Part shown: positions 5,236 to 48,978 of the stretch, piece after piece
Layout: every line of letters starts with the position of its first letter
Position numbering within the stretch: the stretch's first letter is position 1
NCBI GenBank assembly: GCA_037131165.1
Contig: JBAXRO010000002.1
Coordinates: 6,144-70,143 of the forward strand
Reading direction: 5' to 3'
DNA length: 64,000 bases
Origin: Actinomycetes bacterium
GTDB lineage: Bacteria > Actinomycetota > Thermoleophilia > Solirubrobacterales > Solirubrobacteraceae
Notes under the pieces: generated by a model
Database searches by the model: none
Told to the model about the DNA's origin: nothing
What the model saw: the letters and a program-made list of their open reading frames with translations, nothing else
Position numbers and translations under genes: made by a program

Positions 5236-5314
5236 CCGCAATCGCGGTTCGCGACGGGTACGGCCTACGACCGTAACCGGTCAGGGTTGCACCCGCACCC
5301 ACCGTGTCTGTAAC

Positions 5315-34623: not shown

Positions 34624-35652
34624 TCAACCAAAGAAGATCTCAGCGTCCTCGAACAGAGTCGGGTCGAGAAGGCGCGGCTCCTCGAGCGCTCTTGAGAGCG
34701 GCTGGAGGGTGATCTCGGTTCCCGTCAGGGCGGCCATCACGCCGAACTGCCCGCCGAGCACTGCGCGGGCCGCCGCGAGACCGAGGCGGGTCGCGAGGAT
34801 CCTGTCGGTCGCTGTCGGCGTTCCGCCTCTCTGCAGGTGACCGAGGATCACGGCGCGGCAGTCGTAGCCCGTCCGCTCGGCTATCTGCTGCTCGAGCCAG
34901 ATCCCGACCCCACCGAGACGGGCGTGGCCGAAGGCATCGGTCTGCGCCCCTGCGGTGACAAGGTCCCCGCCGATCGGTGTCGCCCCCTCCGAGGTGACGA
35001 CGATCGAGAAGGAACGCCCGGTCTCGTGCCGGGTGCGCAGGTGCGAGCAGACCCGCTCGATCTCGAACGGGCGCTCCGGTACGAGGATCAGGTCCGCCCC
35101 GCCTGCCAACCCGGCCGAGCAGGCGATCCAGCCCGCGTGGCGACCCATCACCTCGACGATGATGATCCTGTCGTGCGACTCGGCAGTGGTGTGGAGGCGG
35201 TCGATCGCGTCGGTCGCGATCTGGACCGCGGTATCGAACCCGAAGGTGCGGTCGGTGCCGGGGAGGTCGTTGTCGATCGTCTTCGGCACGCCGACCACCG
35301 GCACTCCGTCGGCGGCGAGCTTGGCGGCTACCCCCAAGGTGTCCTCGCCTCCGATCGCGATCAGGGCGTCAACCCCGTCGGCGGCGAGCCTCGAGCGGAC
35401 CCGTTCCGTTCCGTCGGCTCCATCGGCGTAGGGATTCGTGCGTGACGAGAGGAGGATCGTGCCTCCCCTGGGGAGCAGGCCGGCGATGTCGGAGCGACCG
35501 AGCGGAACGGCTTCGCCCTCGAGCACTCCGGCCCAGCCTCGGCGGTAGCCGACCACCTCATGGCCGTCGGCGAGCACATCGCGGGCCGCGGCCCTGATCA
35601 CGGCGTTGAGCCCGGGGCAGTCCCCACCGCCGGTGAGCAGAGCGATCTTCAT
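34624..35652 (-). CDS. pfkA: 6-phosphofructokinase (ATP- or PPi-dependent; not distinguishable here)
   Basis: MKIALLTGGGDCPGLNAVIRA, IAIGGEDTLGVA, PKTIDNDL, VMGRHAGW and GHLQRGG. Confidence 0.85.
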   Translation of the reverse strand: MKIALLTGGGDCPGLNAVIRAAARDVLADGHEVVGYRRGWAGVLEGEAVPLGRSDIAGLLPRGGTILLSSRTNPYADGADGTERVRSRLAADGVDALIAIGGEDTLGVAAKLAADGVPVVGVPKTIDNDLPGTDRTFGFDTAVQIATDAIDRLHTTAESHDRIIIVEVMGRHAGWIACSAGLAGGADLILVPERPFEIERVCSHLRTRHETGRSFSIVVTSEGATPIGGDLVTAGAQTDAFGHARLGGVGIWLEQQIAERTGYDCRAVILGHLQRGGTPTATDRILATRLGLAAARAVLGGQFGVMAALTGTEITLQPLSRALEEPRLLDPTLFEDAEIFFG

Positions 35653-35721: not shown

Positions 35722-36003
35722 TCAGCCGACCGTCACGCCCTTCCAGAAGGCGACCCGACCGGCAATCTCGGCGGCAGCGTCCTTGGGCTGGGCGTAGTAC
35801 CAGGCGGCGTTCTCGTTGAGTTCGCCATCGACGCCGAGCGAGAAGTACTCGGCGGTCCCCTTCCAAGGGCAAACGCTCGTGTGCGAGCTCTCGACGAGGT
35901 ACTCGTCGTTGACCGAGCCGCGCGGGAAGTAGTGGTTTCCCTCGACGACCACGGTTTCGTCGCTCTCCGCGATCACTGCGCCGTTCCAGGTTGCCTTCAT
36001 CAT
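35722..36003 (-). CDS. DUF427 domain protein
   Basis: MMKATWNGAVIAESDETVVVEGNHYFP..CPWKGTAEYFSL..AAWYY. AAGGAGA lies upstream of ATG 36003/36000. Confidence 0.7.
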   Translation of the reverse strand: MMKATWNGAVIAESDETVVVEGNHYFPRGSVNDEYLVESSHTSVCPWKGTAEYFSLGVDGELNENAAWYYAQPKDAAAEIAGRVAFWKGVTVG

Positions 36004-36031
36004 CGCTCTCCTTCGGTATCGCCTTGATCGG

Positions 36032-36418
36032 GTGAGGTCGGCCGCGACGGCCACCGACGTTCTTCCGAGGTCAACGAGGTTACGGCTGCCGCAGCGCCTG
36101 CGATCTTGCGAGGCCGTGCGAGAGCGACTTGGAGCGGCATGGCTTCACTACCGGCGCCTGACTCGATCGGGTTGGCCGAGAGACTTTCCGATCGCGCAGC
36201 TCCCCAACCCGCCTCTGCTCGTCGCGATCGTCGGCTGGCTGGTCGGCGCGCTTGCCGGCGGTGAGGTTCACCGAGCCGGGCGGGCCGTCTTCTACATCGG
36301 CCTGTCCGTCTGGGCATGGGAGGAACTGACTTCGGGAGTCAACTGGTTTCGACGGCTCATCGGTGCCGGACTGCTCGTATGGCTGGCCGCGCAGATCGCA
36401 TCGTCACTGCCTGCGTGA
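36032..36418 (+). CDS. small hypothetical membrane protein
   Basis: The C-terminal 90 aa contain three hydrophobic segments: PPLLVAIVGWLVGALAGG, AVFYIGLSVWAW and LIGAGLLVWLAAQIA. The start is unclear (GTG 36032 or GTG 36116). Confidence 0.4.
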   Translation: MRSAATATDVLPRSTRLRLPQRLRSCEAVRERLGAAWLHYRRLTRSGWPRDFPIAQLPNPPLLVAIVGWLVGALAGGEVHRAGRAVFYIGLSVWAWEELTSGVNWFRRLIGAGLLVWLAAQIASSLPA

Positions 36419-36476: not shown

Positions 36477-36549
36477 GCCGACGTAGCTCAGCTGGTAGAG
36501 CACTTCACTCGTAATGAAGGGGTCAGCGGTTCGAATCCGCTCGTCGGCT
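36477..36549 (+). tRNA. tRNA-Thr (anticodon CGT)
   Basis: Manual cloverleaf. Acceptor GCCGACG/CGTCGGC. D arm GCTC-agctggta-GAGC. Anticodon arm CTTCA-ctCGTaa-TGAAG. Variable gggtc. T arm AGCGG-ttcgaat-CCGCT. Discriminator T. No encoded CCA. Confidence 0.9.
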
Positions 36550-36553
36550 CTCA
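36503..36553 (+). repeat. direct repeat copy 1 (3' half of tRNA-Thr plus 4 nt)
   Basis: The 51-nt segment from the anticodon stem to 4 nt past the tRNA end recurs at 38089-38139 with 2 mismatches. Confidence 0.9.
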
Positions 36554-36591
36554 TGCAGAAGTCAACCGGGAACCGGAGACCGGGCCCAGCC

Positions 36592-38085
36592 ATGAGGTTC
36601 CCCCGCATGACCGCCGACATGGCGTGCTTGATCTCATTGGTTCTCCTGACCGCGATCGGGGCCGCCCTGCGCCTCTGGCAGATCCGAAGCGGACTCTTCG
36701 GGGACGAGCTCTACGCATTCAGCGAAACCGCGGGTGCGAGCTTCGGCGAAGTGCTGGAGAACGTCAGCCAGAAGAGCATCGAGGTGACGCCTCCGCTGTT
36801 CTTCGTCCTGGCAAGTGCGGCGGAACGGCTGGGCGATGCCGCCACGACCGTGCGAATCCCCTCCGAAGTTGCAGGGATCCTGCTGATACCCGCCATGTTC
36901 GTGCTCGGGAAGGCCGGGGTCGATCGAAGGGTGGGCCTCGTCGCGTCAGCACTCACGACATTCAGCGTCTACGGCATCTACTACTCGGTCGAAGCCAGGC
37001 CTTACTCGCTCTTGATGCTCTTCTCCGCGGTGTCGACGATCTGCCTGTTCAAGCTGATCGACCAAGGGAGGCGAAGATGGCTTGTCGGCTACTCCCTGGC
37101 CTCGGCCGCAGTCCTCTACACCCACTACTCCGGTGTTGGAGTGCTGGCTGCCCAGTTCGGGTGGGCGGTCTGGTTTCACCGGGACCATTGGCGGGGACTC
37201 GTCGCGGGGAACCTCGTCGCGGGGCTTCTCTTCCTCGTTTGGGTCCCTTCGATCAGCCTCAAGGAAGGGGCCAAGGCGACAGTCGACCCGTTCAGCCCCG
37301 GAGTCGAGTCGCTCGTCAGCTGGGCCCGGCAGCTGGTGACCCTCCCCTACGGCGACGCTGGCTTCACCGATCTGCCCGGGATCCCATCCCTCGTAATCCT
37401 GGGACTCTGCCTGACCGTCGGTGCCGTCGGAACGGCGGTTCGCCAGGGGGACCGTGCCTACCGGTTGCGTCCGGGTTCCACCCAGGCGCTCTTTCCGGTC
37501 CTGATGCTCGCGTCGCCCGCCTTCATGTTGCTGGCTTCGTTGGCGACCGGACTCGGGTTCCTCCAACCCCGCTACTTCAGCGCTTCATTCCCGGCGTTGA
37601 TCGTCACGGTCTCGGCGCTTCTTGCGATGTCCGATCGACGACTCGGGATCGTCATCTCGGGCGTCGCAGTAGCGGTTTCCGCGTTCAGTGCAGTCAAGGC
37701 CCAGCAGCCCAGGTACCAACGCCCTGACATGCGTGCGGTCGCCCGTTGGGTCGACGCACCCGGCCCGCGAAACGCAGTCATTGCCGACTGGATCCTGCCG
37801 TACAACGGCCAGAACACCCTACGTCCCTACCTCGAAGTCCCCGCGCGCGACAGGTCGGCCTTTCCGCTCGGGAACGGGATCTCTCAAGTCGAAAACGCAT
37901 CCCTGATCGGAGCCGACGTCGTGCTCGTCACGAACGCTGGTTTCCTGAGGGAGACTGAACGGTCGATCACGTCGAACCCCCGGTATCGCCTGAAGTTCGT
38001 GAGGACGGCCCGCTGGCCCGGGCTGGTCGGCGGAATTCGCGCGTCATGGTTCGTCTTTACCGGTTCGAAGCCCGCAAAGCAATAA
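36592..38085 (+). CDS. GT-C fold glycosyltransferase (PMT_2/ArnT-like, polyprenyl-phosphate-sugar dependent)
   Basis: Polytopic membrane protein with an early-loop GDELYAF (DE motif), then YYSVEARPYSLLML and YTHYSGVGVLAAQFGWAV. It is a paralog of the 43714-45222 product. The start is uncertain (ATG 36592, 36607 or 36619). The part of track ORF 36514 upstream of ATG 36592 runs through the tRNA 3' half and is not coding. Confidence 0.65.
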   Translation: MRFPRMTADMACLISLVLLTAIGAALRLWQIRSGLFGDELYAFSETAGASFGEVLENVSQKSIEVTPPLFFVLASAAERLGDAATTVRIPSEVAGILLIPAMFVLGKAGVDRRVGLVASALTTFSVYGIYYSVEARPYSLLMLFSAVSTICLFKLIDQGRRRWLVGYSLASAAVLYTHYSGVGVLAAQFGWAVWFHRDHWRGLVAGNLVAGLLFLVWVPSISLKEGAKATVDPFSPGVESLVSWARQLVTLPYGDAGFTDLPGIPSLVILGLCLTVGAVGTAVRQGDRAYRLRPGSTQALFPVLMLASPAFMLLASLATGLGFLQPRYFSASFPALIVTVSALLAMSDRRLGIVISGVAVAVSAFSAVKAQQPRYQRPDMRAVARWVDAPGPRNAVIADWILPYNGQNTLRPYLEVPARDRSAFPLGNGISQVENASLIGADVVLVTNAGFLRETERSITSNPRYRLKFVRTARWPGLVGGIRASWFVFTGSKPAKQ

Positions 38086-38088
38086 CCC

Positions 38089-38139
38089 CTTCACTCCTAA
38101 TGAAGGGGTCAGCGGTTCGCATCCGCTCGTCGGCTCTCA
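38089..38139 (+). repeat. direct repeat copy 2: orphan 3' half of tRNA-Thr (att-like)
   Basis: cttcactcCtaatgaaggggtcagcggttcgCatccgctcgtcggctctca has 49/51 identity to copy 1. Differences are G to C in the anticodon and A to C in the T-loop. No 5' tRNA half lies upstream. It begins 3 nt after the GT-C stop. Confidence 0.9.
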
Positions 38140-38198: not shown

Positions 38199-40493
38199 GT
38201 GCTTCGAAGCGGAAGGACCCGAGTGGCGATGGCGGTCTTGGCCGCCGTTCTCGCCGCCCCGGCATCGAGTGCCTCCGCTGTGGACGTCGCGACACAGTTG
38301 GACGCGGGCGTCGGAGCGTCGAGCTCATTCGTCGGCGGTGGGCACACCTGCGTCGTCACCACGACAGGCGGGATCAGATGCTGGGGCGACAACTCAACCG
38401 GCCAGCTGGGGGACGGCACCTTCGACCAGCGAACGAGTCCGGTCACGGTCTCCGGGGTGTCGAACGCCGTGCAGGTCGCGAGCGGCGGCGACCACAGCTG
38501 CGCCCGCGTTACCAACGGGGACGTCTACTGCTGGGGCGACAATACCTTCGGTCAAGTCGGCTCGGACCCGGAATCGGTGGCCAACTCCGCCACCGCCGTC
38601 AAGGTGGTCGGGGTGAGCGGGGCGACCGCGATCACAGCCGGCTCGCAACACACGTGCGCGCTGCTTCCAAACAAGACCGTCTCATGCTGGGGCAATGGCC
38701 TGTGGGGTGTGCTGGGAGTCGATGACGCGAACGGCAACTCGAGCTTCACCCCGCTCGCTGTGACCGGCCTCACCAACGTGACCCAGATCGCGGCCGGGGC
38801 AAGCCACACCTGCGCGTTGAGCGAATCAGGGGGCGTCAGCTGCTGGGGAAGCAACGACTCCGGCCAGCTCGGTATCGGGACGCTCGAATGGATGCCGCTG
38901 CCGACCTCGATCGCCGGACTCACCGGGGTTGCGCAGCTCGCAGCCGGTGCGACCAACACCTGTGCGGCGATGACCGACAGATCGGTCAAGTGCTGGGGCG
39001 ACAACACCTTCGGCCAGATCGGCGACGCCACCGACACGAACCGCCTCACTCCCACAGCCGTGAGCGGACTGGCCGACGCTACCTCCGTGACTGTCGGCGA
39101 CAGCTTCGCCTGCGCCCGGCTGGGCGGTGGTTCGGTCAAATGCTGGGGGGTGACCGACCCTGGCAGCCAGTGGTGCGAGGTCCTCTCCGGCACGTTGAAG
39201 AACTGCTTCAGCATCGTCGAGTACGGCGACCGAAGCCTCGACCCGACGATCGACCTCGCCGTCAACCCGGCGGCCGTCTCCTACACGCCGAAGGCAATCA
39301 CCGGGATCGCGGATGCCGCCCAACTGTCGGCCGGCGACAGGCACCTGTGCATTCTGCGAGTCAACAGCAGCGTCGCCTGCCTGGGACTCAACGCCTACGG
39401 CCAGCTGGGCGACAAGACAACCACGGCCACGTCCGCTCCGGTCGCCGTCGCGGGCCTCGGAGCCACGTTGCCTCCCCCGACCGTCACGGGCGGTGTTCCG
39501 GCGGCGTTCACGAAGCTCACGTCGGCGACGATCTCCTTCACCGGTGAGGCGAAGTCGACATTCACCTGCTCGCTCGACGGGGGCAAGCCCGCGACCTGCA
39601 CCAGCCCGCGCAGACTCACCCTCCTCAAGGACGGCACGCACAGCCTCTCGATCGTCCAGAAGAACCAATCCGGCGTCTCGAGCACGCCGACGGTGGTCAC
39701 CTGGACAGTCGACACCAAGGCACCGGCAGCGCCGACCCTCAGCGGAGCCCCAACACCGTTCACCAACCTCAAGAACGCGTCGATCGCGATCACCGGAGAG
39801 ACCGACGCCATCCTCTCCTGCTCGATCAACGGCGGCCCGTTCAACCCCTGCGCCAACCCCACCACACTCAACTCACTCCCCGACGGCACTCACTCCCTCA
39901 CCGCCCGACAAACCGACCGAGCCGGCAACACCAGCCCCAACGCGACTGCCAACTGGACAGTCGACACCAAGGCACCGGCAGCGCCGACCCTCAGCGGAGC
40001 CCCAACACCGTTCACCAACCTCAAGAACGCGTCGATCGCGATCACCGGAGAGACCGACGCCATCCTCTCCTGCTCGATCAACGGCGGCCCGTTCAACCCC
40101 TGCGCCAACCCCACCACACTCAACTCACTCCCCGACGGCACTCACTCCCTCACCGCCCGACAAACCGACCGAGCCGGCAACACCAGCCCCAACGCGACCG
40201 CCAAGTGGGTGGTCGACACGATCGCGCCCAGCCTGACCCGGAAGGTCGCTGGCTACATCACCCGCAGGGGGACGACCACTTCGATCGCCCTGCAGCCGGC
40301 CAAGGACCCGTCGGGGATCGCGTTCGTCGAGTATTCGACAGCGACCGCTTCGCCAGCGCCAACAGCCGAGCCGATCACCGCGAACGTCGTCAAGTATGAA
40401 TCGCCCACGGTGATCAGAAAGTCCGTCGCCGTCAAGTGGCTGCGGATCCGGGACGGCGCCGGAAACACCTCCCCCTGGTACCGAGCGACCTGA
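38199..40493 (+). CDS. secreted RCC1-repeat (seven-bladed propeller) protein with three Ig-like repeats
   Basis: Signal (M)LRSGRTRVAMAVLAAVLAAPASSASA. Seven CWG-type blades: IRCWGDNSTGQLGDG, VYCWGDNTFGQVG, VSCWGNGLWGVLG, VSCWGSNDSGQLG, VKCWGDNTFGQIGD, VKCWGVTD and VACLGLNAYGQLGD. These are followed by three 84-aa repeats of the form F.C..DGG....C....L..L.DGTHSL. GTG 38193 is an alternative start. Confidence 0.8.
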   Translation: MLRSGRTRVAMAVLAAVLAAPASSASAVDVATQLDAGVGASSSFVGGGHTCVVTTTGGIRCWGDNSTGQLGDGTFDQRTSPVTVSGVSNAVQVASGGDHSCARVTNGDVYCWGDNTFGQVGSDPESVANSATAVKVVGVSGATAITAGSQHTCALLPNKTVSCWGNGLWGVLGVDDANGNSSFTPLAVTGLTNVTQIAAGASHTCALSESGGVSCWGSNDSGQLGIGTLEWMPLPTSIAGLTGVAQLAAGATNTCAAMTDRSVKCWGDNTFGQIGDATDTNRLTPTAVSGLADATSVTVGDSFACARLGGGSVKCWGVTDPGSQWCEVLSGTLKNCFSIVEYGDRSLDPTIDLAVNPAAVSYTPKAITGIADAAQLSAGDRHLCILRVNSSVACLGLNAYGQLGDKTTTATSAPVAVAGLGATLPPPTVTGGVPAAFTKLTSATISFTGEAKSTFTCSLDGGKPATCTSPRRLTLLKDGTHSLSIVQKNQSGVSSTPTVVTWTVDTKAPAAPTLSGAPTPFTNLKNASIAITGETDAILSCSINGGPFNPCANPTTLNSLPDGTHSLTARQTDRAGNTSPNATANWTVDTKAPAAPTLSGAPTPFTNLKNASIAITGETDAILSCSINGGPFNPCANPTTLNSLPDGTHSLTARQTDRAGNTSPNATAKWVVDTIAPSLTRKVAGYITRRGTTTSIALQPAKDPSGIAFVEYSTATASPAPTAEPITANVVKYESPTVIRKSVAVKWLRIRDGAGNTSPWYRAT
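39701..40198 (+). repeat. perfect tandem duplication, 2 x 246 bp at 252-bp period, inside the RCC1 gene
   Basis: 39701-39946 is identical base for base to 39953-40198 (compared by eye line by line). A diverged third copy lies upstream at about 39470-39700. Confidence 0.9.
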
Positions 40494-40555
40494 GTCCCTG
40501 GCCGCAGTGGCTTCTCCCTTGTGGCAGGTGCCGTGGGGGCGTAGCATCAGACTCG

Positions 40556-41542
40556 ATGAGAACACCGAGGCAACCGGCGGTCGCCGCCGCCACGCTCGCC
40601 TGCTTGGTCGGCATTGCTCCCTTTGGCCTTGGGACGGCAACGGCCGCGGCCAAGATCCCCGGCTGCAAAGCCAAGAGCCTCCGCTCAGCGAACCTGAGCG
40701 GCTGCGACCTGAGGAAGGTGCGCGGGCTCGTGGGGGCCAACCTCTCAGGCAAGAACCTGACGAGAGCCAACCTCTCAGGCACGAACCTCTACGGGACGAA
40801 CCTCAACAGGACACGGCTGGCCGGGGCCAACCTCGTGGGAGTCCGCTCCGGGAAGGTCCGTGGGAGGCCCGCCAGTCTGCCTCGCCCGTGGCGCCTGAGG
40901 TCAGGGTTCCTCCTCGGTCCCAGGGCATCACTGTTGCGGGCGAACCTGACCGGAGCCGATCTCACCGGTCTCGACCTGACCGGAGCCAGCTTCAAGGAGG
41001 CCGACCTGACCGACGCCGACCTGAGCGATTCGGTTCTCGAGGGAGTGGCGTCGGGCGATGTTGCCGGTGAGCCCACGCTCCCGGACGCATGGGTTGTCAA
41101 CAGCGGTTTCCTGATCGGCCCGCGCGCGAACCTCAAGGCTGCGGGCCTGAGCGGAGCCGACCTGAGCGGAGGAGTGTTCATGGCCGGCGCGAACCTTGCA
41201 GGCGCCGACCTGAGCGGAGCGAACCTGAGCGATGCGAAGCTGACGAACGCCAACCTCACCGGGGCAAACCTCGCCGAGGCGAAGCTGACGCTGGCGGGAA
41301 TGACCCGGGCGAACCTGACGTCCGCCGACCTCAGCGGGGCCAAACTCGGCTTCACGAAGCTGCCCTACGCGAATCTGACGAAGGCCAACCTGACTGGGGC
41401 GTCGCTCAACTACACGACGATCCTCGGTGCCCGGTTCGCCCGAGCCGACCTGTCCGACGTCAAGAGCTCAAAGCTCTCGGGCGCACCGGCGAGCCTGCCG
41501 ACCGGCTGGTCGGTAGTGGACGGCAAGCTCATCCAGGAGTGA
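40556..41542 (+). CDS. secreted pentapeptide-repeat protein
   Basis: ATG 40556. Signal AVAAATLACLVGIAPFGLGTATAAA. Long runs of A(N/D)L(S/T)G pentapeptides such as ANLSGKNLTRANLSGTNLYGTNLNRTRLAGANL. Confidence 0.85.
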   Translation: MRTPRQPAVAAATLACLVGIAPFGLGTATAAAKIPGCKAKSLRSANLSGCDLRKVRGLVGANLSGKNLTRANLSGTNLYGTNLNRTRLAGANLVGVRSGKVRGRPASLPRPWRLRSGFLLGPRASLLRANLTGADLTGLDLTGASFKEADLTDADLSDSVLEGVASGDVAGEPTLPDAWVVNSGFLIGPRANLKAAGLSGADLSGGVFMAGANLAGADLSGANLSDAKLTNANLTGANLAEAKLTLAGMTRANLTSADLSGAKLGFTKLPYANLTKANLTGASLNYTTILGARFARADLSDVKSSKLSGAPASLPTGWSVVDGKLIQE

Positions 41543-41552
41543 CTCGGTTGGC

Positions 41553-42266
41553 TTGGCGGATAACTCCCCGCCCCACCTGCGGCTTGGAGTGACTAAACCC
41601 GATTCACCTCAGGAGACGAACTCTGAGCCTTCGTCACGTCGGCGCAGCTTGCTTGCCGCGCTCCTGTTGATCGTTGCGGTCGGGCTGCTCTGGCTGGTCG
41701 CGGTGACAGCCGGAGACGCGCCCGGGGATCGTCGGATCGACGCTTGGGCGCAGAGGCTGTTCTACGACTGGCGGGTGGATGGCCCGCGCGACGGGGCGGC
41801 CGTCCTCACCTGGCTGGTGGACTCCCTCAAGGCGATCGGGGACCCCCTGCCGGCCGCCCTGCTGACCCTTGGCGCGGTCGCTGCCGTCGCCCTGAGGATG
41901 GGACCGAGGTACGGACTCCTCCTGCTCTCAGCTGCCACCGTCGGACTAGCGACGACCGCGATGAAGATCGTCGCGCCGCGACCCGGAGTCGCCGATGGAA
42001 CACCGAGCTTCCCGAGTGGCCACACGGCCTATGCCACCGCCGTCCTCGGCACTGCCGCCGCGCTGGCCATCGAACGCGGCCATCGCCGCACAGCGGCGGC
42101 AGCGTGCGCGGCGATCTTCCTGATGGGGGCGACTCGGGTGATCGGCGGCGGCCACTGGCTGAGTGACGTGCTCGCCGGCTACGCGCTCGGCGGGGCATGG
42201 CTGCTGCTGATCCTCGCCTTCGGGATGCCGTGGGCAAGGAGAGGTGGCGACGGGGTCAAGGAGTGA
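41553..42266 (+). CDS. PAP2 family (type 2 phosphatidic acid / polyprenyl-diphosphate) phosphatase
   Basis: Three PAP2 motifs: KIVAPRPG, FPSGHTAY and TRVIGGGHWLSDV. TM-rich. TTG 41553 or GTG 41589 start. Confidence 0.75.
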   Translation: MADNSPPHLRLGVTKPDSPQETNSEPSSRRRSLLAALLLIVAVGLLWLVAVTAGDAPGDRRIDAWAQRLFYDWRVDGPRDGAAVLTWLVDSLKAIGDPLPAALLTLGAVAAVALRMGPRYGLLLLSAATVGLATTAMKIVAPRPGVADGTPSFPSGHTAYATAVLGTAAALAIERGHRRTAAAACAAIFLMGATRVIGGGHWLSDVLAGYALGGAWLLLILAFGMPWARRGGDGVKE

Positions 42267-42285
42267 ACTGTCAGGATCGGGCTCG

Positions 42286-43680
42286 ATGACCGCCAGCGGC
42301 TACTTCAACGGTCCGTGGCCAGCCGAAGACGGCGGCGCGCGGCGACTCCAAGCACCCCATGGTGAGCAGGGCCTCGGTATCGAGGCCGGCGAGTCGCTCT
42401 CCGTCTTGGCGGCACGCAGGGTCGGCGGAATCCAGATGATCGTCCGCGGCCCCGGGGACTCGATGTACGCACTGCGATCGATCCTCGGTCGCAGGGCGTT
42501 GCTCGACCCGGCGGAAACAGTGATCGAGCGGATCGACCCAATCACGCTCGAGTCTCTGGCCGAATCGCCCAGCCTGCCTGCTGGCCCCTGGTGGGCAGGA
42601 GGTCTGGCCGTCCTCGCCGACGGCGGAGTCGTCGCGATCAGCGGGCGCTGGGCCCACCGACTCGATCCCGACTCACTGCAGCCGACAGCCGCACGGGAAC
42701 TCCCTGTTGACGCCCCGTACAACTCATTCGTCGCCCTCGCCGACGGGACCCTCGTGACCAAGGACTTCGACCGTTCGCTCAACCGTCCCGCGACGCTTCT
42801 CGCACTGGACCCAGTCACGCTGGAAGACCGGGCTTCCCCCCTCCGCCTGCCCGAGACCGTGATCGCGCGGCTCAGCGCCGACTCGACAGAGATCTACGCG
42901 GTCGGGGTCAACCGCGCGATGAGGATCCGCTGGGATGGAGCCGATCTCTCCCTCGACGATTGGCAGCACCACTACCGGACCGGGTCAGGCGGCGGCTACG
43001 GATGGGACCCGGTGATCGCAGCCGGGAGACTGTGGTTCCTCGATCAGGGGCGCCACCGCTTCCGCCTTTCGATGCGCGGCTCCGGACTCGACAAGGGGCC
43101 GGTCAGGCTGCACTCGATCCCACTGGACGACGCATCCGGCGCGACGTCTGTCGTGATCTGCGGCGAGCCATACGGGGCGATCACCAACCCGCCGCTGATC
43201 GACCCGGAAAGGATGATCGCCGTCGGCTACGACACGGCCAACGGCAGGATGACAGCGTTCGACATCCCCGAAACGCCATCGGCCGAACCGACGCCGAGAT
43301 GGCGCAAGGCGATCGACAGCGGGCCTCACCTGTTGCGCTGGGCCGAGACCGGCGAGATGCTCGCCTGCGACCACAGGGCCCCCTGGCCGCTCGGGACGAG
43401 GTCCGGATCGCGCCTGCTCGACACCGCACTCTCCGATGCGTTGCGCCTGTCGGGAGAGCGCACTCCACACCTCGAACCGAAGCTCGCCGAGCGGCTCGCC
43501 GGCGAGGACGCCGTCGTGCTCGACATCGAGACCGGCGAGGAGAAGGGACGAGCAAGACTGCCCGTGCTTTCGCAGTCGGTGATGTTCCCGACGGCAGGGG
43601 CCAACCGAGACGCGATCCTGACGACGATGACAGCGATATTCAGGGTCGGGCCGGGCAGCCCGAAGCCGATCCAGACCTGA
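42286..43680 (+). CDS. hypothetical protein (no signal peptide; beta-rich, possibly propeller-like)
   Basis: 464 aa with good codon bias. Recurrent ADG.(V/L)V strands: LADGGVVAISG, LADGTLVTKD. No recognised catalytic motif. Confidence 0.6.
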   Translation: MTASGYFNGPWPAEDGGARRLQAPHGEQGLGIEAGESLSVLAARRVGGIQMIVRGPGDSMYALRSILGRRALLDPAETVIERIDPITLESLAESPSLPAGPWWAGGLAVLADGGVVAISGRWAHRLDPDSLQPTAARELPVDAPYNSFVALADGTLVTKDFDRSLNRPATLLALDPVTLEDRASPLRLPETVIARLSADSTEIYAVGVNRAMRIRWDGADLSLDDWQHHYRTGSGGGYGWDPVIAAGRLWFLDQGRHRFRLSMRGSGLDKGPVRLHSIPLDDASGATSVVICGEPYGAITNPPLIDPERMIAVGYDTANGRMTAFDIPETPSAEPTPRWRKAIDSGPHLLRWAETGEMLACDHRAPWPLGTRSGSRLLDTALSDALRLSGERTPHLEPKLAERLAGEDAVVLDIETGEEKGRARLPVLSQSVMFPTAGANRDAILTTMTAIFRVGPGSPKPIQT

Positions 43681-43701
43681 CCTCCCGGCCAAGACCGGGA
43701 G

Positions 43702-43707
43702 TATTGT
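43702..43707 (+). promoter_or_regulatory. -10-like box TATTGT, 6 nt upstream of GTG 43714
   Basis: tattgt, then ggcgcc, then GTG. Confidence 0.35.
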
Positions 43708-43713
43708 GGCGCC

Positions 43714-45222
43714 GTGGAGGAGCGGGAGCCAGTCAAGCGACCCACCGGGCCTCGCTGGGCGGCAGCGGTTGGACTGATAACGCTGCTCGCGGCCGTGCCG
43801 AGACTGATCGCGATGAGGGAGGGCCTCGCCTGGGACGAGCTCTACCTCTACTCGCTCGTTCACGACCAGGGCCTCGGGGCGATGCTCGATGCCGTCCGCG
43901 CAACCGAGAAGACGCCGCCGCTCGGGTTCGTGACGGCCTGGCTTCCGGACCGGCTGGGCGGACCACCCCAACTGATCAGGCTGCCCGCACTGATCGCCGG
44001 GCTCTCGTTGGTGCCACTGACGGCCCTGCTCGCCAGGCGAGCCTTCGGCTCAACAGCCGGATTGGCCGCCGCCGCCCTGGCGGCCGCCAGTCCGTTCCTG
44101 CTGTTCTACTCGGTCGAAGCTCGCTCCTACTCGCTCACCGCGGCCCTCGCGCTCGGATCGACCCTCCTGCTGTTGAGGGCGCTCGACAACGCCTCGAAGC
44201 GGGACTGGGTCGCCTACTCGTTGCTCGGCGCGGCGGCGTTGATGAGCCACTACACGGCCGTGTCGGTGCTCGCGGTCCAGTTCGGCTGGGCGTTGGCGAC
44301 TCGCCCCGACCGACGTCGGGCCGCGCTGCTGGCGCAGGCCGCCCCGCTCCTCGCCACTCTCGCCTGGCTGCCCTCGATGGCCGATCAGGTGCGCAACTCC
44401 AGTGACGAGCTGGCCCGGCTCTCCGCCGCGGCTCCGCTCTCGCTCGACACTCTCGGCAGGCTGATCGGACGCACCCTGGTCGGCAACCCGTTCGTCGCGC
44501 TCGACCGGGTTCCGGGATCAGCGGCGCTCGTAGCGATCGCGATCGGAGCGACGATCGCCGCGGGATTCGCGCTCGCTCGCTTTGTCGAATGGTCGAGGCT
44601 CGACGAAAGGCCGAAGCCGAAAGCGGAGACGATGCTGCTTGTCCTGATCGCGGTCGCTCCGCTGGCATTGGCCCTGCTCGTCAGCCTGCAGCCGAAGCAG
44701 AGCATGCTGCTGCCGCGGAACGTCCTCGTCGGCCTGCCCGCCGCGCTCGCGCTGGTTTCGGCACTGCTGGTGAGGCCGCCGCGGCCCGCTGCCGCCGCGG
44801 CCTGCGCGCTCGTCATCGGAGGCCTCGCCGTCGGCTCCGCCGTGGCCTTGACGGAGGGGCGCCGCCCGGCATCGCGCGAGGCCGCGCTGGCCGTCTCCTC
44901 GCGCTGGAAGCCGGGAGACAGGATCCTCGATCTCTGCTGCATCGCTGGCGCACGCGGCCCGCTCGGGACGGCAGTAGCGATCAACCTGCCCGAGGACAGG
45001 AGAGCCGCGCTCTCCATCGTGACCCTTCGTGGAAACGGGATCTACGACGAGGTACTCCGTGAGCGGGGCCGCCTGTTTGTGATCGGATCAAGGATCGAAG
45101 GCAACAAGGACCTGATCCTGTTCAGCCCCCCGAAGGGATGGCCGGATGCCTACCGTCCGGTTTGGAGCAAGCGCTGGCCCGGGGTCGTCGAGACGGAGGC
45201 GATCGAGTACGTCCCCCGCTGA
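43714..45222 (+). CDS. GT-C fold glycosyltransferase (PMT_2/ArnT-like), paralog of 36592-38085
   Basis: WDELYLY in the first loop, FYSVEARSYSLTAAL and SHYTAVSVLAVQFGWAL align with the equivalent motifs of the first GT-C. About 11 or more TM segments. Confidence 0.65.
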   Translation: MEEREPVKRPTGPRWAAAVGLITLLAAVPRLIAMREGLAWDELYLYSLVHDQGLGAMLDAVRATEKTPPLGFVTAWLPDRLGGPPQLIRLPALIAGLSLVPLTALLARRAFGSTAGLAAAALAAASPFLLFYSVEARSYSLTAALALGSTLLLLRALDNASKRDWVAYSLLGAAALMSHYTAVSVLAVQFGWALATRPDRRRAALLAQAAPLLATLAWLPSMADQVRNSSDELARLSAAAPLSLDTLGRLIGRTLVGNPFVALDRVPGSAALVAIAIGATIAAGFALARFVEWSRLDERPKPKAETMLLVLIAVAPLALALLVSLQPKQSMLLPRNVLVGLPAALALVSALLVRPPRPAAAAACALVIGGLAVGSAVALTEGRRPASREAALAVSSRWKPGDRILDLCCIAGARGPLGTAVAINLPEDRRAALSIVTLRGNGIYDEVLRERGRLFVIGSRIEGNKDLILFSPPKGWPDAYRPVWSKRWPGVVETEAIEYVPR

Positions 45223-45229
45223 GTCGCGC

Positions 45230-46435
45230 TCAGCGGACGGAGACGGACGAGGCTGCCGCGCGGGCGCGCGCCCGCGCGGAATCGGTGTCGGGGCCAGTCG
45301 CCAGGACGACACCCATCCTCCTGCCGGGCCTCGAGTCGGGCTTGCCGAAGAGCCTCAGGTCAACCTCCGGATCGTCGGCGAGTGCTTTTGCGGCTCCTTC
45401 GATCAGGGGGTGGTCGGCTTCAGCCTCGGCGAGGACTACTGCGCTGGCGCCCGGCGCGATCAACGGGATCTCGCCTCCCGGCACCGCGAAGCCAAGGATC
45501 GCCCTGACGTGGAGCGCGAACTCCGGAAGCGCCTGGGTCGCCATCGTCACCATGCCGGTGTCGTGCGGTCGGGGCGAAACCTCGCTGAAGAGGACCTCGT
45601 CGCCGCGGATGAACAGCTCGACCCCGAAGATGCCGCGGCCACCGAGGGCGTCGGTGACGGCAGTCGCGATCTCGCGTGAGCGGACCAGCGCGGTCTCGCT
45701 CATTGCTTGCGGCTGCCATGACTCGCGGTAGTCGCCGTCGACCTGCACATGACCGATCGGCGCGCAGAACGAGGTTCCTCCGGCATGGCGGACCGTCAGC
45801 AGCGTGATCTCATAGTCGAACTCGACGAAGCCTTCGACGATCACCCTCCCTGCCCCCGTCCTCCCGGCCTCCTGAGCGTAAGCCCACGCCGCGGGGCCGC
45901 CATCGGGCTGCGAGACGACCGACTGCCCCTTCCCCGACGACGACATCACGGGCTTGACGACGCAGGGGACGCCGACTTCGGCGACGGCGGCGGCAACCTC
46001 CTCCTCGCTGTCGCAGAACCGGTAAGGCGAAGTCGGCATGCCGAGCTCCTCGGCCGCGAGACGGCGAATCCCCTCACGGTCCATGGTCAGGCGCGCTGCC
46101 CTCGCAGTCGGCACGACATGCACCCCTTCCGCCTCGAGCAGTTCGAGCTCGGCGGTGGCGATCGCCTCGATCTCAGGCACGACCAGCAGACGGGCGCACG
46201 GGCGGGCCCGCTCGGCCTCGATCAGCGCGCGGAGCTCAGCCGGGTCGGTCATGTCGATCACGGCCGAACGGTCAGCGATCCGCTGGGCGGGAGCGCCCGC
46301 GTAGCGATCGACGGCCACGACCTCGCAGCCGAGCCGCTGCGCCTCGATCACGACTTCCCGACCGAGCTCGCCCGAGCCGAGCAGGACCAGCCGAACGGCC
46401 GCCTCGCTGCCCGGGACTCCGATCGCATCACTCAC
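45230..46435 (-). CDS. purT: formate-dependent phosphoribosylglycinamide formyltransferase (GAR transformylase 2)
   Basis: [25 protein letters not shown]-grasp body, [11 protein letters not shown] 46435 lies 7 nt after TATTGT and gives an N-terminus of E. coli PurT-like length. The longer track ORF overlaps the cupin gene. Confidence 0.85.
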
Positions 46436-46442
46436 CGTCGGG

Positions 46443-46448
46443 ACAATA
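46443..46448 (-). promoter_or_regulatory. -10-like box TATTGT, 7 nt upstream of GTG 46435
   Basis: Plus strand reads acaata. Confidence 0.4.
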
Positions 46449-46467
46449 CGCACCCCGGTCGGTCGGT

Positions 46468-46473
46468 TAGATT
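46468..46473 (+). promoter_or_regulatory. -10-like box TAGATT, 7 nt upstream of ATG 46481
   Basis: tagatt, then tctgccc, then ATG. Confidence 0.4.
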
Positions 46474-46480
46474 TCTGCCC

Positions 46481-46849
46481 ATGCTCGAACCCCCGCATCT
46501 CGATTCGCTTGAGCCGTTCATCACCGTTGACGGCTCGTCGATCCGCGAGCTGGCGCATCCGTCGTGGACGGCGGCCGCAAACCAATCGCTGGCCGAGGCG
46601 ACGCTCGGCCCCGGAGGCAAGACGGCCGAGCACTACCACCCGGTCGCCGAGGAGATCTACCACTTCACTTCAGGGAGCGGCAGGATGCGACTCGGCGATG
46701 AGGAGTTCGACGTGCGGGTGGGCCATGCGGTGGTGATCCCCCCGGGCGTCCCCCACAAGATTTGGAACACCGGCGAGGGTGACCTCGTCCTGCTCTGTTG
46801 TTGTGCCCCGGCGTACAGCGACGACGACGTCGTGATGACCGGCCGCTGA
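46481..46849 (+). CDS. cupin domain protein
   Basis: 122 aa with the two cupin motifs [17 protein letters not shown] and [18 protein letters not shown]. Confidence 0.65.
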
Positions 46850-46934: not shown

Positions 46935-48857
46935 ATGAAGAGGGTTCCGAGCAAGCTTGTCCCGTTCGCGATCGCCATGGCCGTGTTCTCGGCGTCGGCG
47001 TCGTCCGCTGTCGCGAGGACCGTTTCGAACACGAAGGACGGCAGGCCCAACATCGTCATCGTGATGACCGACGACCAGTCGGTCGAGGACTTGGACGCCA
47101 AGGGGATCGACACCGGAACGGGGCGGGCAATTGACGCCATGCCCGCAGTCGCCCAACTGCTCACCGGCAAGGGAGCACGGTTCGACAACGCGATCGACTC
47201 CTTCCCCCTTTGCTGCCCGTCCAGGGCGACGTTCATCACCGGCCAGTACGCCCACAACCACGGAGTCGGGGGCAACTTCTTCCCTTACGGCTGGTACGGG
47301 ATGACGGACCGGGCCAACACCCTCCCGAAGTGGCTCAAGGACTCCGGGTACTACACGGCCGCGGTCGGCAAGTGGCTCAACGGCTACGGAGCGGGAACCT
47401 CCGCCGACAAGGACGCGCAAGGCAATCCGCTCAAGGCGGGCGGCGAAAAGCCCGCCGGTTTCGACAACTGGAACGGCGCGGTCGACGTCTCCGCCTACGA
47501 CTACTTCAATCTCGCCCTCAACCAGAACGGAACCGTGAAGTACTGGGGCGACAAGAATTACGCCAAGGCGCTCAACGACTTCGCCCGCATCCAGGTGATG
47601 GGTCCGGCCGCCAAGAGCATCTTCACCGTGCTTGAGCGGGCGGCCGATCTCTTCGGCAACACCAATCCCTCGGCGTCGCTCAGCGAGAAGCTCGGCGCCT
47701 TGGGGAAGGCGGCGGCCGATCCGACCACCTACGGAGCAGTGCCCAAGCCCGGTTGTGACAGCACCACCAATCGCTACAACCTCACCAAGAGCTGCTATTC
47801 GCCCGACGTCACGGCGGCGATCTCAGACTCGATCATCAAGTCGCAGAAGAGCTCGAAGAAGCCCTTCTTCCTCTGGTGGTCGCCGGCCTCCCCGCACAGG
47901 GAGGACGTCAACGGCGGGATCCGCAACGGCCTCCGAGGGGGAGTCCGCTACAAGGCGCTTCCGGGCAATCCAAAGAAGGAAGACGTCCAGCCGTCAAAGA
48001 TCGTCCCCGACCCGCGGCCGGCTCCCCGCTACGCGAAGGCCAAGTTCGACTGGACCAAGATCACCTCCAAGCCGTCGTTCGACGCTGCGCCAACCGACAA
48101 ACCGGCCAGCCAGCGCGAGAACCCCGTGTTGAAGAAGCCCCTTTCCGCTCTCGACCGACAGCGCCTCGAAGCCAACTACAACGGCCGACTCGCCTCGCTG
48201 AAGGCCGTCGACGATGGCTTCAAGAAGATCTACGACACCCTCAAAGCGACCAAGCAGCTCGACAACACGCTCTTCGTCTTCACCTCGGACAACGGCTGGT
48301 TGAATGGCGAGCACAGGGTCCCCGGGGACAAGTTCCTTCCCTACGAGGAGTCGATCCGGGTGCCGCTGATCATGCGTGGCCCCGGGATCCCCGCCGGGCG
48401 CAGGGTCAGCAACCTCGTGACCAACGTCGACTTTGCGTCGACGATCCTCGAGGTGGCCAAGGCGACGGCGACGGCGGGACGCGTCCAGGACGGCATCTCG
48501 CTGCTCGGGCTCGCCAAGGGCACAGCGAACCCGCTGCCGAGGGCCATCGCGCTCGAGGCGAATGCGCCTCTGTTCGCCGATGCCTCGATGCCGCAGCAGT
48601 GGGACCATCCCTACCGCGGGGTCAGGACCGATCGCTGGAAGTACGTGATCTGGTGTGAGAAGAACAACCCGGAAGCGAAGGACGCCCAGACCTGCACGCC
48701 CAACGGTGACAAGGAGCTCTACGACCTCCAAGCCGACCGGTACGAACTGAACAACCTCGCCGACAACCCGGCCTACGCCGTGATTCAAGCCGCCCTTCAG
48801 GCGAAGCTCGACACTCTCAAGGCGTGCTCCGGGCTGGGCTGTCGGATACCGCAGTGA
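46935..48857 (+). CDS. secreted formylglycine-dependent sulfatase
   Basis: Signal KLVPFAIAMAVFSASASSAVA. PNIVIVMTDDQ. Sulfatase signature PLCCPSRATFITGQYAHNHG (C-x-P-x-R). FTSDNGW. Confidence 0.85.
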   Translation: MKRVPSKLVPFAIAMAVFSASASSAVARTVSNTKDGRPNIVIVMTDDQSVEDLDAKGIDTGTGRAIDAMPAVAQLLTGKGARFDNAIDSFPLCCPSRATFITGQYAHNHGVGGNFFPYGWYGMTDRANTLPKWLKDSGYYTAAVGKWLNGYGAGTSADKDAQGNPLKAGGEKPAGFDNWNGAVDVSAYDYFNLALNQNGTVKYWGDKNYAKALNDFARIQVMGPAAKSIFTVLERAADLFGNTNPSASLSEKLGALGKAAADPTTYGAVPKPGCDSTTNRYNLTKSCYSPDVTAAISDSIIKSQKSSKKPFFLWWSPASPHREDVNGGIRNGLRGGVRYKALPGNPKKEDVQPSKIVPDPRPAPRYAKAKFDWTKITSKPSFDAAPTDKPASQRENPVLKKPLSALDRQRLEANYNGRLASLKAVDDGFKKIYDTLKATKQLDNTLFVFTSDNGWLNGEHRVPGDKFLPYEESIRVPLIMRGPGIPAGRRVSNLVTNVDFASTILEVAKATATAGRVQDGISLLGLAKGTANPLPRAIALEANAPLFADASMPQQWDHPYRGVRTDRWKYVIWCEKNNPEAKDAQTCTPNGDKELYDLQADRYELNNLADNPAYAVIQAALQAKLDTLKACSGLGCRIPQ

Positions 48858-48899: not shown

Positions 48900-48978
48900 C
48901 GGTCGCCCGGTGCCAGGCGATCAGGATGTTTGTGGCGAACTGGCGAAGTCTTTACCTGCGACCGGTAACCTCGTTCCG

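Follow-up and report, generated by a model that had tools for sequence, protein, structure and literature searches.

A gene string encoding secreted repeat proteins, a PAP2 phosphatase and a GT-C glycosyltransferase is probably an evolutionary mosaic

Five genes on one strand of a Solirubrobacteraceae genome encode two secreted repeat proteins, a PAP2 phosphatase, a 464-residue protein and a GT-C membrane glycosyltransferase (GT-C2), and a second such enzyme (GT-C1) is encoded just upstream. Do these genes form a dedicated glycosylation system for secreted proteins, as a first-pass annotation proposed? We analyzed the 64-kb stretch of DNA that contains them (the window; features in Table 1). 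The open reading frames, domains and coordinates described before all match ours, and the intergenic gaps of 62, 10, 19 and 33 nt are reproduced with the called start codons. We conclude, with a probability of roughly 0.6, that the string is not one dedicated system but a three-layered evolutionary mosaic. From the proposed glycosylation module we retain the GT-C folds, the tight spacing and a lead on RCC1 proteins, but not the co-conservation, the link to the 464-residue protein, a nearby donor synthase or lipid recycling by PAP2.

Table 1. Features of the gene string and its surroundings, with positions in the window.
Feature	Position	Strand	Description
tRNA-Thr (anticodon CGT)	36477..36550	+	ARAGORN; GT-C1 insertion site; bounds the variable slot on the left
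Direct repeat copy 1	36503..36553	+	Intact tRNA-Thr 3' half
GT-C1, PMT_2-type GT-C membrane glycosyltransferase	36592..38085	+	497 aa; Pfam PMT_2, E 5.6e-10
Direct repeat copy 2	38089..38139	+	Displaced tRNA-Thr 3' half, 2 mismatches
RCC1 protein	38199..40493	+	764 aa; secreted RCC1 beta-propeller, three Big_13 Ig-like repeats, C-terminal domain
252-nt tandem duplication in RCC1 gene	39701..40219	+	2.1 copies, 98% identical (Tandem Repeats Finder)
Pentapeptide-repeat protein, secreted	40556..41542	+	328 aa; Pfam Pentapeptide, E 9e-45
PAP2-family integral membrane phosphatase	41553..42266	+	237 aa; Pfam PAP2, E 3.4e-15
464-aa protein	42286..43680	+	8-bladed beta-propeller with helical insert; no family model
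GT-C2, PMT_2-type GT-C membrane glycosyltransferase	43714..45222	+	502 aa; Pfam PMT_2, E 1.4e-12
purT (formate-dependent GAR transformylase)	45230..46663	-	Conserved right-hand synteny anchor
Secreted Cys-type sulfatase	46935..48857	+	CCPSRATFITG motif in translation; propeller gene 3.2 kb upstream

The spacing of the five genes is tight enough for co-transcription. Terminator-like sites within the string (four) are not in excess of the mean of 4.0 in shuffled sequence, and a scan for sigma-70-like promoters, which is ill-suited to actinobacterial promoters, returned none. The genes may well be co-transcribed in the host genome, in a recent and lineage-specific arrangement.

The att-like repeat noted upstream of the RCC1 gene is real. 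It consists of 51 nt of the 3' half of the tRNA-Thr gene, of which a second copy lies 5' of the RCC1 gene; no such repeat is expected by chance. The insertion in the 3' half of the tRNA gene measures 1,586 bp and contains GT-C1 as its sole gene. In the closest relative of the host genome, a congeneric metagenome-assembled genome (MAG; locus L005), GT-C1 is absent and its best match is the GT-C2 orthologue. The RCC1 gene begins there 63 nt past tRNA-Thr, and the flank 3' of the tRNA gene is homologous to the window sequence 3' of repeat copy 2. The tRNA-Thr gene itself is at the syntenic position in L005 and L001. GT-C1 is a recent single-gene insertion found in the host genome only, and therefore the pattern of two secreted proteins encoded between two GT-C genes, which had suggested a module, is an accident of insertion at the tRNA. 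The paralogy of the two enzymes stands (40% identity), limited to the N-terminal 184 residues. Only 20 homologues of GT-C1 were found (closest 66% identical), and large Ig-like proteins (ASH/Ig-like, Big_13) are encoded next to its relatives. Serotype-conversion gtr modules occur at the ends of prophages integrated in tRNA genes, and the position of GT-C1 directly against an att-like repeat at tRNA-Thr resembles such modules (GtrA, GtrB, GtrC). However, the site has no GtrA, GtrB, integrase or other phage gene, and a search of phage genomes and viral contigs with GT-C1 gave no match.

The remainder of the string falls apart when relatives are compared, all of which are MAGs or metagenome contigs, many of them short, with absences at contig ends being uninformative. 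Among the best 80 loci with a homologue of the 464-residue protein, the RCC1 (74% identical), pentapeptide (77%) and PAP2 (81% across 165 residues) genes are all present only in L005, where all genes from RCC1 to GT-C2 keep their order at 74–87% identity. Co-conservation of the gene set in other genomes thus fails, as trio and pair occur together in just this one relative. The sole recurrent unit is the 464-residue protein with GT-C2, which has a fixed place next to purT in about nine distinct loci, with spacings from a 20-nt overlap to a 52-nt gap; L001, L002, L007, L085, L086, L118 and L121 have this pair and lack the trio. Orthologues of GT-C2 also occur without the 464-residue protein (L120, 55% identical; L090, 51%), and the pair is separable. 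The slot between tRNA-Thr and the pair is occupied in other relatives by HSP20, DUF4395, amino-acid permease or short RCC1 genes. The ATP-grasp/PurT_C gene is syntenic in L001, L002, L005, L085 and L120; purT is a synteny anchor with no part in glycosylation.

The 464-residue protein matched nothing in Pfam, NCBIfam or the PDB sequences. Structure prediction, which had been recommended for it, gave a confident 8-bladed beta-propeller (AlphaFold2, pLDDT 91.8, pTM 0.92), with Foldseek matches to Rv3035, BamB, YxaL, PQQ dehydrogenases and tetrathionate hydrolase at 9–14% identity. No signal peptide is visible in the sequence. The protein has at least 771 homologues, more than 70 of them without a GT-C gene within 10 kb; among the best 80 loci, a GT-C gene lies in the flanks only in L005, L006 and L007. 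The commonest neighbour of the family is a sulfatase (28 of 63 loci, across phyla). In most cases its gene immediately precedes that of the propeller on the same strand (median gap 46 nt), and in eight loci the stop and start codons overlap by 4 nt. The CxPxR motif of Cys-type sulfatases is present in 29 of 33 of these neighbours. Genes syntenic with the sulfatase gene of the window occur in L001, L002 and L085. The primary functional tie of the propeller is more probably to sulfatases than to GT-C enzymes, which argues against its assignment to a GT-C module.

GT-C2 is predicted to have about 13 transmembrane helices and a small C-terminal alpha/beta domain (AlphaFold2, pLDDT 92.8). Among its Foldseek matches, ArnT in complex with undecaprenyl phosphate ranks first (5f15, E 1.6e-7, TM-score 0.52, 12–13% identity); Emb, AftB, AftD and PimE are matched as well, and oligosaccharyltransferase, ALG and Pmt4 about equally well, with TM-scores around 0.5 and 12–14% identity overall. 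Both enzymes of the locus have the GT-C fold, an Asp-Glu pair after the first transmembrane helix (TM1) and an EKxPPL motif (EKTPPL), and the general GT-C biochemistry ascribed to them is reasonable. In the GT-C2 family, D41 is invariant and E42, which together with it directly follows TM1, nearly so. In Pfam, GT-C1 and GT-C2 match the broad PMT_2 family only, and neither PF02366 nor PMT_4TMC; no Pmt chain was matched in a search of PDB sequences, nor were the NCBIfam ArnT models. GT-C2 is a generic GT-C fold and not an orthologue of GT39 Pmt, ArnT or Emb/Aft. A tblastn search of the window (GtrB-like query) and Pfam scans of those larger called genes that synteny had not already assigned revealed no polyprenyl-phosphate-sugar synthase (GT2), and UbiA-like or DprE-like donor genes were absent from the window proteins scanned.

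The RCC1 protein matches RCC1/WD40_RLD (E 1e-60), RCC1_2 and Big_13 Ig domains in Pfam. The Pro/Thr-rich segments (TVDTKAPAAPTLSGAPTPFT), previously taken for linkers, are present, but they start each Big_13 unit and are not free linkers. The duplication in its gene adds one Ig repeat and affects two of the three units; the L005 orthologue (680 residues) is 84 residues shorter. Sec signal peptides of the RCC1 and pentapeptide proteins were assigned by eye (basic N-terminus, hydrophobic core, AxA-type site), and that of the RCC1 protein is conserved in L005. The PAP2 protein, with weak matches to PgpB and SepP, contains PSGH and TRx5Hx3D ((S/T)Rx5Hx3D) and is, judged by these motifs, catalytically intact. 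PMT_2/ArnT-type GT-C enzymes take polyprenyl-monophosphate sugars and release polyprenyl phosphate, not polyprenyl diphosphate. The recycling of polyprenyl diphosphate proposed for PAP2 is therefore not a required step, and a BacA/UppP gene is also present in the window (23101–23952).

What GT-C2 modifies can be read in two ways. It is possible, though doubtful, that GT-C2, and by paralogy GT-C1, represents a new PMT_2 subfamily of protein O-glycosyltransferases, acting on the adjacent secreted repeat proteins: RCC1-Ig here and, in relatives, either RCC1-collagen with DUF11x6 or a short RCC1 protein. The pentapeptide protein, PAP2 and the propeller would then not be essential parts. Three different gene arrangements place an RCC1-repeat secreted protein no more than 7 kb from a GT-C2 orthologue. 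The distance between RCC1-propeller gene and pair is 0.6–5.4 kb in the window and in L005, L001, L118, L007, L010 and L085; L086 and L121 share the L001 arrangement, with contigs that stop inside the RCC1-collagen gene. Eight RCC1 matches lie within 7 kb of the pair vs none in 62.6 kb of more distant sequence (naive P 0.033, uncorrected for shared ancestry), and the window contains a single RCC1 gene. The recurrence and the Ig-like neighbours of GT-C1 relatives are suggestive of a real link between GT-C enzymes and surface proteins, the recurrence being confounded by shared ancestry: because the loci are close relatives, only about three arrangements are independent. Moreover, as neighbours, purT, HSP20 and the sulfatase are just as 'conserved', and the GT-C2 orthologues of L002, L120 and L090 have no RCC1 gene in view. 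In Actinobacteria, protein O-mannosylation is carried out by Pmt enzymes of family GT39 (among them M. tuberculosis Rv1002c and the Pmt of Streptomyces), for which Ppm1 is the polyprenyl-phosphate-mannose synthase, and PMT enzymes carry a DE motif. The likeness to actinobacterial Pmt lies in the GT-C fold, the Asp-Glu pair in the first outer loop, the predicted polyprenyl-phosphate sugar donor and candidate secreted proteins with Thr/Pro-containing segments encoded nearby. The GT-C enzymes here differ in lacking the Pfam signatures of known bacterial Pmt, a Pmt chain match and a nearby Ppm1-like synthase. Known Pmt systems are housekeeping and are not known to be encoded beside their own substrates. 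The best structural match, ArnT, modifies lipids, and fits a different reading, which we consider rather unlikely: GT-C2 would modify an envelope lipid or polysaccharide like ArnT, Emb/Aft or Mpt, and PAP2 would remove a phosphate either from the acceptor, the role of LpxE/LpxF prior to lipid A glycosylation, or from a polyprenyl-phospho-sugar-phosphate precursor of the donor, a function proposed for Rv3807c. The small C-terminal soluble domain and the intact PAP2, encoded 19 nt upstream of the pair, add to the likeness to ArnT (GT83) with LpxE/LpxF, but the low similarity to ArnT is shared by other GT-C enzymes, outside the window PAP2 is found with GT-C2 in L005 only, and Actinobacteria are not known to have lipid A. 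The mycobacterial arabinan machinery (Emb and Aft GT-C enzymes, Rv3806c, Rv3807c) offers a precedent for a PAP2 gene amid GT-C and donor-synthesis genes, with Rv3807c next to UbiA in the arabinogalactan cluster (PMC3229680), and for an 8-bladed propeller partnering a GT-C enzyme (PMC13041763). However, Emb/Aft structures match GT-C2 weakly (E 3e-4 to 6e-3), and the window proteins scanned include no counterpart of UbiA or DprE.

The propeller has also to be considered as a partner of GT-C2. In Mycobacterium tuberculosis, the periplasmic lipoprotein Rv3035, an 8-bladed propeller that associates with the GT-C arabinofuranosyltransferase AftB, supports this enzyme together with FecB (PMC13041763). 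Rv3035 is the top match of our model (9p3g, E 2e-13, TM-scores 0.63/0.72), and the two genes adjoin in the pair loci. An analogous accessory role is nonetheless improbable: BamB and other generic 8-bladed propellers score nearly equally, a visible signal peptide is lacking, more than 70 propeller homologues have no GT-C gene within 10 kb, and GT-C2 orthologues occur without the propeller. Least credible is a single dedicated system of all six proteins, with PAP2 recycling the lipid carrier. The common strand, the short gaps and the order kept in L005 are consistent with it, but the GT-C1 insertion is genome-specific, apart from L005 no relative with the pair has the trio, the propeller is tied to sulfatases elsewhere, a donor synthase is not found nearby, and the polyprenyl phosphate product needs no pyrophosphatase, with BacA encoded in the window.

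We therefore favour the mosaic. Its core layer would be the propeller, followed by GT-C2, beside purT. The variable slot between tRNA-Thr and the pair would form another layer, filled with the RCC1-Ig, pentapeptide and PAP2 genes in the host and one congeneric MAG, and the recent insertion of GT-C1 into tRNA-Thr the third. GT-C1 and GT-C2 would each use a polyprenyl-monophosphate sugar, synthesized by products of genes elsewhere in the genome, and pass a single sugar to an acceptor on the outer face of the membrane, with the Asp-Glu pair as probable catalytic residues. PAP2 may independently dephosphorylate lipid phosphates on that face. As acceptor, a repeat protein that is secreted or at the surface is about as likely as a lipid or glycan of the envelope.

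The relatives in which the pair sits next to purT, a cupin gene and a sulfatase gene form a clade at family level, made up of uncultured Actinomycetota from freshwater and soil. In the genus of the host and L005, the five genes may form one transcription unit with a shared role, given their tight spacing, the lack of a convincing terminator and the order kept in L005. The finding is a fairly ordinary one, of separately acquired pieces around one PMT_2-type membrane glycosyltransferase.

The gene map of the region (table below) agrees with the first-pass annotation: its coordinates, the gaps of 62, 10, 19 and 33 nt and the domain calls proved correct on checking with open reading frames and Pfam, and signal peptides were assessed by eye. 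The G+C content of the window is 64-70%, and the MAGs most closely related to it carry the labels Actinomycetes, Solirubrobacterales or Actinomycetota. Beyond the mapped genes, a candidate 569-aa ORF with a signal-peptide-like N-terminus lies just 3' of the sulfatase gene (48910-50619); it has no Pfam match and was not picked by the GC3-based gene caller.

Genes and repeats around the tRNA-Thr gene, in window coordinates
Feature	Position	Strand	Basis
PFK	34624-35652	-	translation + synteny
DUF427	35722-36054	-	
tRNA-Thr(CGT)	36477-36550	+	
GT-C1 (PMT_2)	36592-38085	+	Pfam
51-nt copy of tRNA 3' half, 2 mismatches	38089-38139	+	
RCC1 propeller + Big_13 repeats	38199-40493	+	Pfam
Pentapeptide-repeat protein	40556-41542	+	Pfam
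PAP2	41553-42266	+	Pfam
464-aa protein, no family model	42286-43680	+	
GT-C2 (PMT_2)	43714-45222	+	Pfam
purT	45230-46663	-	translation + synteny
Secreted Cys-type sulfatase	46935-48857	+	translation

We compared the 80 best genome loci with a homologue of the 464-aa protein, using every window protein as a query against the 10-kb flanks, and added near-clade members via contig look-ups and a metagenome scan (28 metagenome loci) that used a closer GT-C alignment, A3, as query. The comparison set consists of MAGs or metagenome contigs throughout; at loci of 59-61% GC the GC3-based caller under-called genes, and ORF listing with Pfam was used instead. The RCC1, pentapeptide and PAP2 genes occur together in only one of the 80 genome loci, that of L005, a congeneric MAG and the closest relative. 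A GT-C gene is present in the flanks of L005, L006 and L007 only, and none was found within 10 kb in the remaining loci, from Streptomyces, Mycobacterium, Solirubrobacterales, Acidimicrobiia, Burkholderiales, Binatia and Polyangia. Conservation of the gene set, which the first-pass annotation had named as a check on its proposal, likewise ends at L005: across the 80 genome and 28 metagenome loci, the five genes were not found together beyond this close relative.

The pair formed by the 464-aa protein, a predicted beta-propeller, and GT-C2 is found at about nine loci, all in one clade, in changing company (table below); the MAGs with the pair include CAVVVM01, WLNJ01, JAPLCJ01 and JBAXHG01. It is the sole recurrent unit, yet separable. 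The PFK, purT, cupin and sulfatase synteny is common to all the genomes tabulated, and adjacency within the clade is therefore weak evidence of common function. In L118, a GT-C2 orthologue is detected by tblastn (5080-6480; 55% over 467 aa) where the source called no gene; this copy may be frameshifted or pseudogenised, or the gene call may have been missed. In these Actinomycetota, tandem pairs of PMT_2-type GT-C genes, and several paralogues per genome, are seen (L087 1919-4881; L090 7956-11167; L120 11-811 and 3122-4702; L091 and L097, which belong to the same MAG, CAFBLU01).

Gene arrangements around GT-C2 in the window and its relatives
Type	Loci	Gene order
A	window, L005	tRNA-Thr, RCC1-Ig, pentapeptide, PAP2, propeller, GT-C2, purT
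B	L001, L086, L118, L121	HSP20, propeller, GT-C2, convergent DUF11x6 + RCC1-collagen, purT
C	L007, L010, L085	short RCC1 + DUF4395 divergent from propeller, GT-C2, purT
D	L002 group	HSP20, DUF4395, propeller, GT-C2, purT
E	L120	HSP20, GT-C2, 531-aa unknown, purT; without propeller
F	L090	GT-C2-like gene, then second PMT_2 gene; without propeller

The upstream enzyme, GT-C1, is the sole gene of a 1,586-bp insertion in the 3' half of tRNA-Thr (36503-38139), bounded by a 51-nt direct repeat that stems from the 3' part of the tRNA, with two mismatches between the copies. The gene spans from 38 nt past the tRNA to 3 nt short of the second repeat. In L005 (CAVVVM010000007.1; proteins 74-87% identical to those of the window) the site is empty: the RCC1 gene starts 63 nt 3' of tRNA-Thr with no GT-C1 between them, and the flank after the tRNA is homologous to window sequence beyond the second repeat copy, from which it follows that the window carries the insertion. 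The features of a tRNA island are thus present in the site at the tRNA 3' end, the tRNA-derived direct repeats and the empty site in L005; the integrase or recombinase expected of such an island was not found in the 1,586-bp insert. A search for more att copies bounding a larger island returned just the two known. Relatives of GT-C1 are few (20 matches, the best 66% identical; another, P0186, at 47%). Phage genomes and IMG/VR viral contigs gave no match, and plasmids gave only weak ones (29-32%, all to haloarchaeal GT39 genes), so that a phage or plasmid origin is unsupported. The comparison with L005 indicates that the insertion is recent and comprises a single gene; it may represent an island that has decayed, or the gene may have been mobilised in trans. 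As an example of a single gene inserted into a tRNA gene, it is a clean one. That two secreted proteins appear flanked by two GT-C paralogues, to which the first-pass annotation had attached weight, is a result of the insertion of GT-C1 at tRNA-Thr; the paralogy itself holds, but over 184 N-terminal residues only (40%).

The RCC1 protein does contain Pro/Thr-rich segments, but these are placed at the start of each Big_13 unit and are not the free linkers that had been assumed. A 252-nt tandem duplication (39701-40219, 98% identical) makes up two of the three Big_13 units and adds one Ig repeat; the duplication is recent, as the orthologue in L005 falls short by exactly 84 aa. RCC1-repeat secreted proteins are found near the pair in types A, B and C, with differing architectures, sides and orientations. 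Of the RCC1 matches in the available sequence, all eight lie no more than 7 kb from the pair, with none in the remaining, more distant 62.6 kb (naive P 0.033), and the 64-kb window holds one RCC1 gene. Relatives of GT-C1 adjoin Ig-like proteins. This proximity, seen in about three independent arrangements, is compatible with a link between GT-C enzymes and surface proteins. A literature search for RCC1 together with protein O-mannosyltransferases in Actinobacteria found nothing relevant. The type B gene pair (L001 12735-18651; L086 4910-9078; L118 6388-12490; L121 4067-8430), convergent and 3' of GT-C2, encodes a protein of 1,237-1,280 aa with six DUF11 repeats and one of 663-723 aa in which an RCC1 propeller is fused to collagen triple-helix repeats.

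For the 464-aa protein, the structure prediction proposed in the first-pass annotation gave a confident model of an eight-bladed beta-propeller with a helical insert (AlphaFold2, 48-sequence alignment; pLDDT 91.8, pTM 0.92). No Pfam or NCBIfam model matched, and a PDB sequence search gave nothing useful. Foldseek matched the model to Rv3035, BamB, YxaL, PQQ dehydrogenases and tetrathionate hydrolase at 9-14% identity, a resemblance in fold that we regard as generic. Together with FecB, the periplasmic lipoprotein Rv3035 supports the GT-C enzyme AftB (PMC13041763), and a similar partnership with GT-C2 was considered as the main explanation. It was rejected, given the generic match and the fact that the window propeller, in contrast to Rv3035, has no visible signal peptide. 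The commonest neighbour of the propeller family is instead a Cys-type sulfatase (CxPxR), mostly directly upstream on the same strand and often joined to it by a 4-nt stop/start overlap, which points the role of the propeller away from glycosylation. We hypothesize from this gene order that the propeller may be an accessory or pathway partner of the sulfatase. Genes for PF04185 phosphoesterases or arylsulfotransferases stand beside it in other loci, and the literature search yielded nothing of relevance on a sulfatase/beta-propeller operon. The sulfatase-propeller order was noted in many Acidimicrobiia, Burkholderiales and Thermoleophilia; propeller loci noted include L033, L041, L054, L056, L057, L059-L061, L063, L068, L069, L072, L073, L075-L077, L080 and L084.

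Both GT-C proteins match PMT_2 in Pfam and belong to a small subfamily with about 30 full-length members, which appears to be expanding by duplication in these Actinomycetota. The AlphaFold2 model of GT-C2 (pLDDT 92.8) has about 13 TM helices and a predicted multi-spanning GT-C core, with Foldseek probability 1.00 to ArnT, STT3/AglB, ALG9/12, Pmt4, Emb and AftB; PimE was also matched. In the first extracytoplasmic loop, directly after TM1 (H13-34), D41 is invariant and E42 nearly so; the DEL motif at this position is shared by GT-C1, and the GT-C2 family also keeps an EKTPPL motif and R89, R137, Y139 and H179. The predicted structure confirms the GT-C fold and assigns no family. As to a GT39 Pmt identity, Pmt4 is among the structural matches (TM 0.54, E 2e-4), more weakly than ArnT; at E <= 0.01, PMT_2 was the only Pfam match, with neither PF02366 nor PMT_4TMC (PF16192), and PDB sequence searches with the single sequence and the family profile gave no Pmt match and nothing useful. 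GT83 ArnT is the top structural match (E 1.6e-7), at TM 0.52 and 12-13% identity, and no NCBIfam ArnT model was matched. To our knowledge, lipid A, the acceptor of ArnT, is absent from this taxon. Agl23 matched below threshold (38 bits, cut-off 126), and the family reaches no curated NCBIfam cut-off.

A three-component system of the Gtr/Csb type would require a GT2 polyprenyl-P-sugar synthase and a GtrA-like flippase, neither of which was found with the GT-C genes: Pfam detected no Glycos_transf_2 or GtrA among about 40 window proteins, and tblastn with the GtrB-like GT2 of L088 gave a best E of 0.13 in the window. The PAP2 assignment is supported by a Pfam score of 56 bits, where the cut-off is 27, and by the catalytic motifs PSGH and, for SRx5Hx3D, TRVIGGGHWLSD in the translation; the first motif, KIVAPRP, is atypical. 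PMT_2/ArnT-type enzymes release polyprenyl monophosphate, and the recycling role originally given to PAP2 is therefore not needed; a BacA/UppP undecaprenyl-diphosphatase is moreover encoded at 23101-23952. An NAD-dependent epimerase/dehydratase gene followed by one for a Bac_transf polyprenyl-phosphate sugar-phosphate transferase (5315-6868) occupies 4285-6868. These envelope-sugar genes and BacA/UppP lie 18-37 kb from the gene string and have no synteny link to it.

The proposal of a dedicated glycosylation system of five or six genes is thus not upheld by comparison with relatives, and the description that fits the region best is that of a mosaic neighbourhood next to a tRNA gene, with additional GT-C-type enzymes. 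Were the proposal right, these Actinomycetota, a poorly known group, would have a protein-glycosylation cassette complete in itself. For its reduced form, that a GT-C enzyme acts on the neighbouring secreted repeat proteins, we estimate roughly one chance in four. It is clearly less likely that GT-C1, GT-C2 and their relatives are protein O-glycosyltransferases travelling with their own substrates, fast-evolving secreted beta-propeller, Ig and DUF11 surface proteins swapped in slots either side of the enzyme gene, with GT-C1 as a mobile addition altering surface glycosylation. If true, this would be bacterial protein O-glycosylation with the enzyme next to its substrate, in a form not described before. 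By the comparative evidence, what surrounds this uncharacterised GT-C glycosyltransferase is more likely ordinary mosaicism of the genome, and the practical value is therefore modest. The most testable lead of the region is probably the widespread beta-propeller family, which has no model and appears translationally coupled to Cys-type sulfatases.
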